DNA of 28,639 nt from Erysipelotrichia bacterium (GTDB lineage Bacteria > Bacillota_I > Bacilli_A > RFN20 > CAG-826). How positions within the stretch are numbered: the stretch's first letter is position 1; every line of letters starts with the position of its first letter. The DNA is taken from positions 1-28,639 of the forward strand of contig JAAZFO010000065.1 in the NCBI GenBank assembly GCA_012511695.1, in the 5' to 3' direction. The position numbers were made by a program, and so were the translations under genes. Of the stretch, positions 18,544 through 27,653 are shown piece after piece. Below the pieces are notes generated by a model. It saw nothing but the letters and a program-made list of their open reading frames with translations, was not told the DNA's origin and made no database searches.

Positions 18544-18584
18544 ATGTACACCTCCGATTTCTTTCGTTGTTATAAGTAATTAAA

Positions 18585-19199
18585 CTATTCTTTACCACGA
18601 AGTTTTTTCATAACGTGGTAGTTTTTGAGGTTATTTAAGCCTTGGTTAGTTGCTCTAATAATATTTATTGGCGCGTGACTACCGTAGACTTTACTACAAA
18701 CGTTTTGTACGCCTGCGAGTTCCAGAACTGCTCTTACAGGACCACCAGCGATAACACCGGTACCTTCTGGTGCGGATTTTAATAAAACTCTACATGCACC
18801 AAACTTACCGACGATATCGTGCTCAATAGTGAAACCTTTAGCTAATTTAATATGGTGTAAATTCTTTTTAGCAGCTTCAGTAGCCTTTTTAATGGCGTCT
18901 GGGACTTCCGCGGCTTTGCCAACGGCGAATCCATATCTCCCCTTACGATCACCAACGACGACTAGCGCTGTAAATTTTATCCGCCGACCACCCTTGACAG
19001 TTTTACTCACTCTATTGATATAAACAACACGCTCTTCAAACTCTTTAGGTTCGTGACGACGAAAGCGCCGTGGGCCACCTCTATGAGTTGGACGACGATG
19101 ATCGCGACGATGCGGGCGTTGTCCTTGTGGAGCATTGGCTTTAGGAGCATTTGGTGTAGCGACTTCTTTTTTTGCTACAACGGCTTTACTTTCTTCCAT
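18585..19199 (-). CDS. rpsE: 30S ribosomal protein uS5 with N-terminal extension
   Basis: [22 protein letters not shown] at 19199 preferred over 19205 from SD spacing (GGAGG-8 nt-ATG). Confidence 0.97.
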
Positions 19200-19213
19200 T
19201 TGCATTTCCTCCT

Positions 19214-20764: not shown

Positions 20765-21811
20765 CTAACGTTGGAAGGGCATACCCAATAATTCTAACAG
20801 GGCATACGCTTCTATATCGTTTGGGGCGGTAGTGACGATAACAACGTCCATACCGCGAACCTTTATCACCTTATCATAGTCGATTTCAGGGAAAATTAAT
20901 TGTTCTCTGATACCGAGAGTATAATTGCCGCGACCATCGAAAGCATTTTTATTAGCGCCTCGGAAGTCACGCACCCTTGGAAGAGAAATGGTCACCAATT
21001 TATCAAAGAAGTCATACATCCTAATGCCTCTTAGAGTAACTTTACAACCGATTTCTTGGCCTGCTCTTAACTTGAAGCTCGCAATACTCTTTTTTGCTTT
21101 AGTAATGATTGGCTTTTGGCTGGAAAGAAGAGCTAACTCGTTAACAGCTTGTTCTAGCTTCTTGCCATCTTGGGTCGCATCACCAACACCAACATTAATA
21201 ACAATTTTACTCAAAGCAGGAATTTGCATTGGTGAGCTGTAGCCAAATTTTTCTAATAATTTAGGGGCTACTTCGTTCTTATATTTGAGTTGCAAACGAT
21301 TAGCAACAATCGCTTTCTTATGACCTTTGACGACCTTTGAGGCGGCTGGTTTCGCTTTGGCTGGAGCCGCAGCTTTTGGCGCTGGGTCTTTCTTAACAGT
21401 TGCTTTTTTCTTTGGAGCCACTTCTTTTTTAGGAGCCGGCTCTTTCTTTGGAGTTGCTGCTTTTGGAGCTACTTCTTTCTTTGTAGCAGCTTCTTTCTTA
21501 ACAACTGATTTTTTATCCACAACTACTTCTTTTTTAGCAACGGGTTCTTTTTTAGTGGCTGCTTTCGTAGTTGGCTCTTTCTTTGGAGCAGCTTCTTTCT
21601 TAACAGCTTCTTCTTTCTTCGTAGCCTTAGCTTTTGGAGCTACTTCTTTTTTAGGGGCTGACTCTTTCTTCGCAGCTACTTTTTTCTTTGGAGCAGCTTC
21701 CTTCTCTGCAACTACTTCTTTTTTAGGGGCTGCAACTTTTGGAGCTACTTCTTTCTTTGGAGCAGCTTTCTTCGCTGGCGCTTTGGTTTCTTTTTTAATT
21801 TCTTCGGCCAT
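20765..21811 (-). CDS. rplE: 50S ribosomal protein uL5 with a 170-aa Lys/Ala/Glu/Pro-rich N-terminal extension
   Basis: L5 core of 178 aa at 20768-21301 ([34 protein letters not shown]). Start at 21811 follows AAGGAGG-8 nt; the ORF-track start at 21856 lies inside rplX. Confidence 0.96.
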
Positions 21812-21824
21812 GACAGCTTCCTCC

Positions 21825-22130
21825 TTATAGCACAGTGTCACTAGCTTTGGTGACACGGACTTTCTTACCCTTGACGACTTTATGACCGATACGGGTAGGT
21901 TTTTTAGTTTTTGGATCTAGCAACATGACATTACTAGCATGGATGGGCGCATAAATTTCAACAATGCCACCATCTGGATTTTTTTGTGATGGTTTATTGT
22001 GTTTCTTACGAATGTTCACATTTTCCACCACCACACGATTTTGTTTAGGAATAACTTTTTGAATAGTGCCAGTTTTTCCTTTATCGCGACCAGCGATCAC
22101 GATAACTTTATCACCTTTTACAAGATTCAT
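21825..22130 (-). CDS. rplX: 50S ribosomal protein uL24
   Basis: [23 protein letters not shown]. Start at 22130 follows AAGGAGG-8 nt. Confidence 0.97.
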
Positions 22131-22523: not shown

Positions 22524-22883
22524 CTATTCGTCCTCCTTGTTTTCTGCTGGAGCTTCAACAGCTGCTTCCACTTCAACGATTTCTTCTTGGTTGGGTTCAG
22601 CTTCAGTTTGTATGACAATCGAGTTTTCTTTCCTATCGATTGAGACTAATCTCCAACGTTTAATAGCGCTTAATTTACGTGTTTCCATGATGGTGACCAC
22701 ATCGCCGACTTTAGCGGAGTTTTCTTCATCATGAGCATAATATTTTTTACCGTATTTAACGCGCTTACCGTATTTGGGATGTTTTCTGTGTGTTTCGACA
22801 AGGACAACGATAGTTTTGGCGTTCTTGTCTGAAACGACGACGCCTTGGACAGCACGGCGTGCTTTTGTTGTTCTAACTTCCAT
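22524..22883 (-). CDS. rpsQ: 30S ribosomal protein uS17 with acidic C-terminal extension
   Basis: [30 protein letters not shown]. Confidence 0.98.
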
Positions 22884-24210: not shown

Positions 24211-24717
24211 CTATTTCATCTTCACCACAACGGTGATATTGGAACTGCGCTTAACTAAGCCAGAAGCAGAACCTTTTGCTCTCGGCATGTAGCGTTTCAT
24301 TTTTAAGCCATCGTTAGCATAGATTTCATCGATATACAGTGTATCTTCATCCATGCCAAAGTTATTGACGGCATTAGCGACAGCAGATTTAATAACTTTA
24401 ATGACTGGCTTACTCGCGGAACGATTGACGTTTCCGAGAATGCTTAGTGCTTGTTTGACTTCCAAACCTCTCACGAGATCAATGACTAAGCGCACTTTAC
24501 GTGGTGTGACTTTGACATTTCTTGCGATAGCTTTGGCTTCAGTGGGCATTAGCTTTTCAGGAGCGACTGGTTTCACTTTTTCTTTTGCCACTTTTGCCGC
24601 TTTCTTAGAAGCGACTTTCCTGGGAGCTTTTTTTTCTTTAGCGACGGCAGCACTTTCTTCCACTACTGGTTCCGCCACTTTTTTTGCTTTTTTAGGAGCT
24701 TTCTTTTCTTCTGCCAT
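24211..24717 (-). CDS. rplV: 50S ribosomal protein uL22 with a 56-aa K/A/E-rich N-terminal extension
   Basis: Core [31 protein letters not shown] precedes 24717; no SD precedes the internal Met57. Confidence 0.96.
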
Positions 24718-25917: not shown

Positions 25918-26262
25918 TTATTCTTTGAAAAGGTCGATTGCTTCGCCTTCAGCGACGGTAACAATGGCCTTTTTATAACCAGAAATCTTACCAGGGTATC
26001 TGGTGCCTCTTGTGGTTGCTTTTGCTTTTTGATTTAAGACTTTGACGTCATCAACTTTCACTTGGAAAATTCTTTCAAACGTTAATTTGATTTCAATTTT
26101 AGTCGAAGTTGATAACACCTTAAGGGTGACTTTGTTTTCGTTTTGCATCAAATCCATCGCTTTTTCAGTGATAATCGGCTTAGCGATAACAGAAAAGTCT
26201 TTTTCGGTTGCTTTTGGAAAGCGAATTTTTGTTTTTAATGCAGCTTTTTTCTTAGATGCCAT
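25918..26262 (-). CDS. rplW: 50S ribosomal protein uL23 with short basic N-terminal extension
   Basis: PIITEKA, KIEIK..FQVKV, KKAIVT. Confidence 0.97.
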   Translation of the reverse strand: MASKKKAALKTKIRFPKATEKDFSVIAKPIITEKAMDLMQNENKVTLKVLSTSTKIEIKLTFERIFQVKVDDVKVLNQKAKATTRGTRYPGKISGYKKAIVTVAEGEAIDLFKE

Positions 26263-26924: not shown

Positions 26925-27653
26925 TTATTTAGTAGCTTCAGCCGCTGGCGACGCTTCGGTTGCAGCAGCTTCAGCGATCACTGGAGTGCGATCAATTAAC
27001 TTTTTAACTTTTTCTGGATTTTTAACATCTTTAATTGCCGATCTAATGGTGACAATACCCTTACGTGGGCCTGGGACACCGCCTTTGATTAAGATGTAGT
27101 TTTTTTCAGCATCAACAGCGATAACTAATTGGTTGTGTATTGTAGATGATTTGTTGCCATGGTGGCCAGCCATACGTTTGCCTGGCATAACACCGTGATT
27201 ATAACGACCGTTATTAGCAAACGAGCCGTGGCCTCGATGGAAAGTTGAGCCGTGGCTTCTAGGACCGATAGATTGATTCCAACGTTTGATAACACCAGTA
27301 AATCCGTGGCCTTTAGAAGTGCCGATCACATCGACAACATCTCCGACTTGGAAGAGGTCGGCTTTAATCTCATCACCGAGTTGGAATTTTGCCATTTCAT
27401 CCCCCTTTAATTCTTTATGAACTTGATGTGGGACTGTATTGGCTTTTTTAGCAATGCCTTTTTCTGGTTTGTTGGCTCTAGATTCTTTTAATTCTTCATA
27501 ACCAACTTGAATAGCGGCATAACCATCTGTTTCGATAGTTTTAACTTGTGTGACGACGTTTGGTAAGACTTCAACGACCGTCACTGCATAGATTTGTCCA
27601 TCTTCAGCGAAGACTTGTGTCATGCCCATTTTACGGCCAATAATTGCTTTCAT
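26925..27653 (-). CDS. rplC: 50S ribosomal protein uL3 with C-terminal extension
   Basis: GRKMGMTQVF, DGYAAIQ, SKGHGFTG, PGKRMAGH, KGGVPG. Confidence 0.99.
   Translation of the reverse strand: MKAIIGRKMGMTQVFAEDGQIYAVTVVEVLPNVVTQVKTIETDGYAAIQVGYEELKESRANKPEKGIAKKANTVPHQVHKELKGDEMAKFQLGDEIKADLFQVGDVVDVIGTSKGHGFTGVIKRWNQSIGPRSHGSTFHRGHGSFANNGRYNHGVMPGKRMAGHHGNKSSTIHNQLVIAVDAEKNYILIKGGVPGPRKGIVTIRSAIKDVKNPEKVKKLIDRTPVIAEAAATEASPAAEATK

Follow-up and report, generated by a model that had tools for sequence, protein, structure and literature searches.

Low-complexity tails on bacterial ribosomal proteins are already documented as a general phenomenon. The carriers reported by Ntountoumi et al. 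(2019, PMC6821194) include S2, S16, L25, S3, S6, L3, L10, L17, L19, L21 and L31; uL5 is not among them. Nucleic acid binding was proposed for the subset with at least 30% lysine, and such tracts are recurrent and lineage-specific (PMC6821194). In Mycoplasma pneumoniae, eleven ribosomal proteins are extended by more than 20 aa (Xue et al. 2022, PMC9534751). The extensions are described as mostly disordered, solvent-exposed and located away from the active sites; their function is unknown, and disruption lowers fitness. Extended proteins named there are S2, S3, S5, S6, L22, L23 and L29, without uL5. In these, C-terminal extensions prevail, and several form helices that are resolved on rRNA. A 2026 preprint considers such fragments as a general ribosome coat (10.64898/2026.06.18.733196).

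Outside the ribosome, tails rich in lysine, alanine and proline that are repetitive, disordered and polycationic are present in the C-terminal domain of histone H1, Chlamydia Hc1/Hc2, Pseudomonas AlgP and mycobacterial HupB. KKE-type units occur in the KKE/D repeat tails of the eukaryotic Nop56/Nop58 and in the KKEE/KKEV repeats of MAP1B, within disordered tails of RNP proteins or of proteins that bind polyanions. uL5 lies at the junction of 5S rRNA, the elbow of the P-site tRNA, bL31 and bridge B1b. Direct contacts of uL5 involve 5S rRNA and bL31 (PMC5137454). A description of a uL5 tail was not found in the literature, in agreement with the original prediction, which knew of none for a bacterial uL5.

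The uL5 gene and its setting

The window, the whole analysed stretch of 28,639 nt, contains the uL5 gene rplE on the minus strand (20765..21811), identified in the list of open reading frames and by its translation into 348 aa. Its neighbours in the spc operon are rplX and rpsN/Z (uL14-uL24-uL5-uS14-uS8). In the window, the S10-spc operon on the minus strand comprises, in this order, uS10, uL3, uL4, uL23, uL2, uS19, uL22, uS3, uL16, uL29, uS17, uL14, uL24, uL5, uS14, uS8, uL6, uL18, uS5, uL15, SecY and Adk. A Shine-Dalgarno sequence AAGGAGG (21820..21826, minus strand) overlaps the stop codon of rplX (uL24), and a spacer of 8 nt separates it from the ATG start codon of the tailed uL5 (21809..21811, minus strand). 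The TAAGGAGG context is also located 5' of the tailed start in relatives. The 170-aa in-frame extension behind a strong Shine-Dalgarno sequence was thereby found again at the predicted coordinates.

The canonical uL5 core comprises codons 171-348 (20768..21301, minus strand), followed by the stop codon at 20765-20767. Pfam recognised the domains Ribosomal_L5 at aa 193-249 (PF00281, 87.2 bits versus a cut-off of 34.9) and Ribosomal_L5_C at aa 253-346 (PF00673, 131.6 bits versus a cut-off of 27.8). The core is 80-86% identical to orthologues of the same genus. Residue 171 is the first of the canonical bacterial N-terminus (NRLQLKY), and Ala170, encoded by GCT, occupies the position of the start methionine in other bacteria. 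A translation start near 21301 would have yielded a uL5 of normal length. This is ruled out by Ala170 and by the sequence near the core, in which no ATG, GTG or TTG with a Shine-Dalgarno sequence was found. The entire genome has one uL5 match, hence rplE is a single-copy gene. With alanine in place of the methionine, without an internal start and with a single uL5, every uL5 is therefore synthesised with the tail. These observations confirmed that the only uL5 gene of this uncultured small-genome bacterium of gut or digester habitats encodes a 170-residue N-terminal tail. The fusion that doubles uL5 is genuine and obligatorily translated. The genome is a bin of 0.96 Mb with 89% completeness; its nearest named relatives are metagenome-assembled genomes (MAGs) from digesters and rumen, labelled 'Erysipelotrichaceae bacterium' and 'Bacilli bacterium'.

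The tail consists of three parts, all on the minus strand. A conserved N-terminal cap (codons 1-20, 21752..21811) was defined by the match to the related genome G005 and by residue counts in 72 tailed uL5. The variable low-complexity body (codons 21-162, 21326..21751) holds amplified KKE/AAPKK-type units, as seen with Tandem Repeats Finder (TRF) and in the matches to G005. The junction motif GHKKAIVA (codons 163-170, 21302..21325) was identified in the alignment with other tailed uL5 and adjoins the canonical N-terminus.

Composition and predicted disorder

Residues 1-170 comprise 54 K, 41 A, 19 each of E, P and V and 8 T, with 3 S, 2 D, 2 I and one each of G, H and M as minor residues. Arginine, leucine, asparagine, glutamine, cysteine, phenylalanine, tyrosine and tryptophan are absent. 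The tail thus holds 32% K, 24% A, 11% P and 12% D+E (21 residues) and has a net charge of +33. KKE occurs 14 times, including KKEVAPK four times, KKEAAPK once and KKEP three times. The earlier hand counts of lysines, acidic residues, net charge, KKE units and absent residues were exact on recount.

The fraction of charged residues (FCR) is 0.44 and the net charge per residue (NCPR) +0.19. A kappa of 0.12 indicates well-mixed charges. Prolines follow each other at distances of 2-26 residues. The mean hydropathy of 0.394, compared with the Uversky boundary of 0.483, classifies the tail as disordered. AF2 modelled residues 1-170 as a coil without secondary structure at a pLDDT of 34-47. This result is supportive, not strong, because the shallow alignment of 24 sequences left the core with low confidence too. 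Both approaches predict a disordered tail, as the original prediction had expected. A set of 74 uL5 tails and linkers of the order is net positive throughout, from +3 to +33, with 14-33% lysine and about zero arginine and aromatic residues. The tail of the window has the highest net charge of this set.

The likeness to histone H1 put forward in the original prediction holds in part: the uL5 tail shares with the H1 C-terminal domain, Hc1/Hc2, AlgP and HupB the richness in K/A/P, the repetitive sequence, the polycationic character and the predicted disorder. In contrast to these tails, it is 12% acidic, follows a KKE pattern, and belongs to a ribosomal rather than a nucleoid protein. The net charge density of H1-type tails is roughly double that of the uL5 tail. 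Membership in the H1/Hc2 families was rejected: Pfam found the two L5 domains only and no match to HC2 (PF07382) or linker histone at E<=1. Another long uL5 tail, that of G397, reached 28 bits against HC2, below the cut-off of 40. Judged by family matches and residue content, the uL5 tail is H1-like in composition only. The resemblance to Nop56/Nop58 and MAP1B is an analogy only, with proteins unrelated to uL5 and from another domain of life.

Like the tracts of Ntountoumi et al. (2019, PMC6821194), the uL5 tail is terminal, low-complexity and rich in A/E/K. Unlike these, it doubles the protein, and its site is shared with fusions to folded domains in relatives. M. pneumoniae resembles the organism of the window as a genome-reduced relative within the Bacilli; the uL5 tail differs in its N-terminal position from the mostly C-terminal extensions of the proteins named by Xue et al. 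(2022).

Distribution among relatives

The tail is not a one-off. Within the same genus, translated uL5 have K/A/P/E tails of 34-56 aa, except for G018 with 120 aa and the window with 170 aa. Among 283 sampled genomes of the family, most of the listed uL5 open frames exceed 200 codons. At a further 49 translated loci of the window's family (f1), most tails measure 20-90 aa, and a few genera lack a tail, namely g25, g39 and part of g22. Long tails of low complexity are encoded by G415 (144 aa), G397 (179 aa) and the pair G350/G311 (110-119 aa), making the tail of the window the second-longest pure low-complexity version found. Among close relatives, the length ranges from 20 to 206 aa.

In the same order, family f2 has K/T-rich uL5 tails of 24-78 aa, and tails are absent in families f5 and f7. 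In other orders of the Bacilli, uL5 open frames have 179-197 codons in 132 of 133 genomes, and more than 197 in one. A sporadic, unrelated uL5 tail of about 75 aa was found in a Xanthobacteraceae MAG.

The tails have a common plan, in which an M-A-E-E-x-K-K cap is followed by a variable body of low complexity and then by a G-N-K-K-A-A-I-V junction. In 72 tailed uL5, whose residue counts are not independent because many sequences are close relatives, A2 and E3 of the cap are present in 64/72 and K6 in 55/72, and the junction has G at position -8 in 51/72, N at -7 in 41/72, K at -6 in 56/72 and A at -4 in 47/72. In the junction alignment, G163, K165 and A167 are invariant. By sequence comparison, the long arm is an enlarged form of the tail of about 50 aa found in most sampled members of the family. 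It is terminal, low-complexity, predicted to be disordered, lineage-restricted and of variable length, as is characteristic for a lineage-specific disordered extension. The tail of the window is the extreme of a family-wide, undescribed uL5 trait, and the trait is a marker of a large uncultured small-genome group of Bacilli in gut, rumen and digesters.

Origin of the long tail

Tail length and repeat unit vary among the rplE of relatives. A uL5-core tree placed the window as sister to G018 (support 99/86), which has the 120-aa tail with a different repeat unit, and both as sister to G005/G020 with 55-aa tails (support 100/98). Its deep nodes are unresolved because it is based on one short protein. 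Nucleotides 1-61 of the tail are 96.7% identical to the G005 orthologue. Downstream, the segments 109-129, 127-161, 214-235 and 316-337 all match nucleotides 39-61/74 of G005, the AAPKK unit. These four internal matches explain the approximately 115 extra residues by repeated duplication of a short unit in the lineage and bear out the proposed internal amplification. The tail body of the sister species G018 cannot be aligned with that of the window. The duplications in the window and the PKAEAK-type expansion in G018 probably arose independently.

The original prediction had seen near-identical units of about 21 nt and had suggested slippage expansion. The recurrence of the units was reproduced: the 21-mer given as an example has two exact copies and six with up to three mismatches, versus zero expected by chance. 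Five of the six matches are inside the tail, and the sixth is located in the core at KNEVAPK (21260-21280). The term near-identical does not apply to the repeats overall. Tandem Repeats Finder detected periods of 18, 51, 69 and 105 nt at 61-85% match, and the best in-frame self-match over 60 nt is 80%. With copies only 61-85% alike, the body is no fresh slippage tract. Near-perfect units and length polymorphism between strains, the features of a hypervariable slippage (contingency) tract, are lacking, and length and sequence are equal in four metagenomes. The repeats are old and diverged, and slippage as an active process was dismissed. As a side observation, the KKEVAPK unit matches the KNEVAPK segment in helix alpha-1 of the core (21260-21280) at 18/21 nt.

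A genome-wide scan for lysine-rich low-complexity stretches yielded four only: the uL5 tail, an N-terminal tail of uL22, the C-terminal AEKAK repeat of an ORF on contig C23 and a short linker in a sigma-70-like ORF. By their Pfam boundaries, several neighbours of uL5 have additional termini as well: the domain begins at residue 63 in uL22 (168 residues), at residue 25 in uL23 (114 residues) and at residue 56 in uS5 (206 residues), and it stops at residue 80 in uS17 (119 residues). Gene conversion between the 5' ends of rplV and rplE was considered and rejected, as a near-identical segment was not found in this genome.

Proposed role of the arm

The sole uL5 would permanently carry an intrinsically disordered arm at its N-terminus, with lysine, alanine, proline and glutamate as prominent residues. 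In the lineage, an AAPKK/KKEVAPK-type unit would have been duplicated repeatedly, with copies diverging while selection held the composition: lysine only, without arginine or aromatics, and always net positive. The G-N-K-K-A-A-I-V junction would lead into the core helix alpha-1. The placement assumed here for the uL5 N-terminus follows general ribosome structure and the natural fusions described below. From the solvent face of the central protuberance, the arm would extend as a polycationic coil with well-mixed charges and a contour length near 60 nm, and the expanded coil could reach over the protuberance and the 30S head. It probably contacts polyanions electrostatically, in a weak and non-specific manner. 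The most likely partner would be rRNA of the same ribosome, at its surface near the central protuberance and 5S rRNA. Such contacts could aid assembly or stability in an order without detected bL25 or uL30. A weak, non-specific electrostatic arm that acts mainly on the RNA surface of its own ribosome or in 5S RNP assembly may well describe the tail, and we hold this reading with moderate confidence.

Several observations limit this interpretation. The tail is only moderately cationic, with its NCPR of +0.19 and 12% acidic residues, and it lacks arginine, the residue usually favoured at RNA interfaces (preprint 10.64898/2026.06.18.733196). The body varies in length and cannot be aligned, which excludes a precise structural role for it. 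The linkers in the domain-fusion variants of relatives are near neutral (+3 to +9). The presence of the tail also does not follow the loss of bL25 and uL30. In the window, uL30 is missing from its slot, with a gap of 41 nt between uS5 and uL15. Neither bL25 nor uL30 was found in the genome, and 0 of 161 genomes of the order had either protein over the family cut-off; bL31 is present. Many other Bacilli are also without bL25 (PMC5137454). A tail compensating for this loss was rejected: the tail-less families f5 and f7 lack both proteins as well, without a family-level association, and therefore the loss does not explain the tail.

The uL5 tail could also be an almost neutral expansion that the ribosome tolerates. 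It would then serve as a spacer or entropic bristle exposed to solvent, without a binding role, and would have grown by replication slippage or unequal recombination in a small-genome lineage under weak selection. The range from 20 to 206 aa in close relatives with independent expansions of different units, the bodies of G018 and the window that cannot be aligned, the near-neutral linkers of the fusion variants and the missing link to the loss of bL25 or uL30 are all consistent with such a spacer. The composition is not. Unconstrained substitution of the tail's own DNA was simulated with 2000 runs per level, and stop-free products were kept. At 5, 10 and 20% divergence, the average tail had acquired 5.5, 10.7 and 20.8 residues from among the eight missing types, and tails with none of these occurred in 6, 0 and 0 of 2000 runs. 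Together with the divergence of the repeat copies, this outcome, far from the actual composition, indicates selection on the composition of the tail. All 74 of 74 tails are net positive. The arm adds an estimated 2% or so to the ribosomal protein mass, in a very highly expressed gene, and length and sequence are equal in four independent samples from 2016-2025. A spacer of this kind is possible, and we consider it the main, though less probable, alternative to the electrostatic arm.

Folded domains at the same site

Relatives have folded modules of 100-125 aa on the uL5 N-terminus. In the genera g23 and g28, two DUF1508 (YegP-like) domains and a K/A/P/E linker precede uL5. One of these proteins, P0096, matched the DUF1508 family with 109 bits, and relatives in the PDB include 2K8E and 2K7I. 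The only DUF1508 copies in the g23/g28 genomes are those fused to uL5. In G379 and dozens of metagenomic clusters, a DUF2188 domain is followed by an acidic stretch, a K/A/P linker and uL5. This module is about 90% identical between two lineages, compared with about 80% for their uL5 cores. Elsewhere, DUF2188 is usually terminal to a similar charged linker, often after a multi-pass membrane anchor. The AF2 model of DUF2188 (pLDDT 79) has a beta-beta-beta-alpha-beta-beta topology. It had no PDB match at E<=0.001, and the best hits were weak RNase-H-like cores. Homology between DUF2188 and DUF1508 was rejected with an hhalign probability of 0.3%. Free-standing DUF1508 or DUF2188 proteins were not found in the genome of the window, and a literature search for a link of either domain to the ribosome found none.

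These natural fusions, the best available evidence on this point, suggest that solvent surrounds the N-terminus of uL5 and that the segment of low complexity acts as a flexible tether. The tail of the window might link ribosomes to the nucleoid, mRNA, anionic membrane lipids or each other. This is close to the original prediction, which had named rRNA coating, tethering to the nucleoid or nascent mRNA and ribosome clustering as possible roles. Its contour length of about 60 nm would exceed the diameter of a ribosome, the lysine-only chemistry suits non-specific binding of polyanions or anionic lipids, and a similar K/A/P/E linker joins DUF2188 to multi-pass membrane anchors in other proteins. 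This intermolecular tethering is possible but not favoured; the charge density is about half that of H1-type tails. Tail-driven clustering is also not needed for hibernation, given that genomes across the order carry a long-type HPF gene. A loss of HPF, considered as a hint of tail-driven hibernation, was rejected on the same grounds; the HPF copy of the window's genome appears short because the contig ends there.

A broader view would make the uL5 N-terminus of this family a modular display arm on the central protuberance, which presents either a long polycationic tether or small folded modules on a shared K/A/P/E linker. We regard this as doubtful. If true, the arm would organise ribosomes spatially, by tethering ribosomes to each other, to the membrane or to the nucleoid, or by stress-linked sequestration, and would be a bacterial counterpart of the eukaryotic fusions of small domains to ribosomal proteins. 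Since relatives carry conserved folded domains at the uL5 site, the locus offers an entry point to the roles of disordered tails of ribosomal proteins. Owing to the location of uL5 at the meeting point of 5S rRNA, P-site tRNA elbow, bL31 and B1b bridge, the charged arm of 170 residues on every ribosome is a natural experiment on the extent to which bacterial ribosomes tolerate, or make use of, additions to their surface.

In contrast to the permanent arm favoured here, a transient pro-sequence would aid uL5 solubility or 5S RNP assembly and then be cleaved at the conserved junction. The extension of bL27, about nine residues long, is cleaved. Like the uL5 tail, it is a lineage-specific N-terminal addition to a 50S protein, and the G-N-K-K-A-A-I-V junction could serve as a processing site. 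The removal of the N-extension of Firmicute bL27 by a dedicated protease (mentioned in PMC5137454) provides a precedent for processing. The DUF2188 module fused to this end is more strongly conserved (about 90%) than the uL5 cores (about 80%), which points to an N-terminal part that is retained and in use. A pro-sequence is very unlikely. Against it also stands that we know of no protease for uL5.

Extremely improbable is a leader that senses the lysine supply, in which the 54 lysine codons (38 AAA and 16 AAG) slow ribosome synthesis when Lys-tRNA is scarce: the codon content is all that speaks for it, most tails of relatives hold just 10-15 lysines, and the conservation is at the level of protein composition, not of codons alone.

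Assembly and reading frame

A misassembly of repeats, or an untranslated stretch upstream of a uL5 of normal length, has a next to negligible probability, even with a source that is a low-depth metagenome bin of 217 contigs. The longest exact repeat within 21250-21860 is 24 nt, and therefore an assembler with a k of 31 or more resolves the tail region. An independent ENA assembly (k127) of a digester run, probably of the same sample, encodes the identical 348-aa protein on an 8.7-kb contig. Logan contigs from four studies, a digester (2016), manure (2025), wastewater (2025) and a bioreactor (2019), cover the entire tail at a minimum of 99% identity. No single Logan contig covers the full tail; the pieces overlap by about 30 nt. 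They agree with each other, and insertions, deletions or joints in the tail were not present in the Logan contigs of the four studies. The check for a repeat artefact asked for with the original prediction thus revealed no conflict.

Translation of the tail is supported by the lack of an internal start in uL5 and by the conservation of the cap between species. Compared with G005/G020, cap codons 1-20 have two synonymous and no non-synonymous differences, and all 20 residues are identical. Compared with G018, there are seven synonymous and two non-synonymous differences. By this pattern of substitutions, the first 20 uL5 codons are constrained at the protein level. The other two sense frames over the tail contain 6 and 12 stops. 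An antisense ORF of 167 aa (21327..21830, plus strand), rich in F/A/G/S, was rejected as a gene; it mirrors the lysine and alanine codons. The transcript trace is weak: one biogas metatranscriptome holds 6% of the sampled words of the tail. A single site varies within the tail: position 21484 (minus strand), T in the window, is G in all four other samples and changes Thr110 to Pro.

Origin of the repeat unit in the uL5 tail

The KKEVAPK unit of the Lys-rich uL5 tail resembles a segment of the uL5 core itself. KNEVAPK in helix alpha-1 (window 21260-21280, minus strand) matches the tail unit in 18 of 21 nucleotides. The unit may stem from this core segment or from the ancestral AAPKK unit seen in the shorter tails of relatives, or the resemblance may be convergence. 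An antisense open reading frame of 167 codons with many F, A, G and S residues lies opposite the tail (21327-21830, plus strand). It mirrors the repeated Lys/Ala codons of the other strand and was rejected as a gene.

Long Lys-rich low-complexity regions in the genome were limited to uL5, uL22 and a minus-strand frame of 446 codons on contig C23. The C-terminal region of the latter, about 90 amino acids of AEKAKAEVEKAK-type repeats after an R/G-rich stretch, is possibly the tail of an RNA helicase. In genome G397 of the same family, the uL5 tail (locus L118) has 179 amino acids and is K/T-rich. It scored 28 bits against the Pfam family HC2 of histone-H1-like bacterial proteins, below the cut-off of 40. 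Residues ~55-90 form a segment that is not of low complexity (EEISEELRILREIRDTL...) and is probably helical.

Domain fusions to uL5 in relatives

Two genera of the same family carry two N-terminal DUF1508 (YegP-like) domains and a K/A/P/E linker on uL5. These products of 353-384 amino acids are encoded at loci L112-L115 and L119 (genomes G286, G396, G371, G374 and G249) and include protein P0096. The genomes have no DUF1508 copies besides those on uL5. The DUF1508-uL5 fusion was present in six genomes (G286, G396, G249, G371, G374 and G432) of a 201-genome family sample, in which tails of the type of genome G415 were not specifically included.

Another form of uL5 starts with a DUF2188 domain, followed by an acidic stretch, a K/A/P linker and uL5. 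It has 327-350 amino acids and was found in proteins P0009, P0014, P0026, P0041, P0072 and others, at locus L117 (genome G379) and in dozens of metagenomic clusters. Between lineages, the DUF2188 module is ~90% identical, compared with ~80% for their uL5 cores. An AF2 model of DUF2188 predicted a beta-beta-beta-alpha-beta-beta fold (pLDDT 79), and a comparison of the model with the PDB gave no significant match.

Outside uL5, DUF2188 is located C-terminally, after a K/A/P/E/T low-complexity linker of the kind in the uL5 fusions (P0133-P0136, P0142 and P0155). Such proteins often begin with a multi-pass membrane region, which is followed by an E/P linker of acidic character, a basic one of K/A/P type and finally DUF2188.

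Other ribosomal proteins

Extra termini are also present on other ribosomal proteins of the operon, all encoded on the minus strand. The domain of uL22 (24211-24717) starts at residue 63 of 168, after a K/A/E/P tail beginning with MAEEKK. Domains start at residue 25 in uL23 (25918-26262) and at residue 56 in uS5 (18585-19205). An acidic C-terminal tail of 39 amino acids is part of uS17 (22524-22883), and uL3 (26925-27653) has 242 amino acids.

Between rpsE and rplO, a gap of 41 nucleotides (18544-18584) holds no uL30 gene. Across a sample of 161 genomes from the order, no match to uL30 or bL25 exceeded the family cut-off. The HPF gene (Ribosomal_S30AE; contig C5, 7591-7950) looks short due to an assembly cut, as it runs off the contig end; HPF open frames in relatives have ~190 codons.
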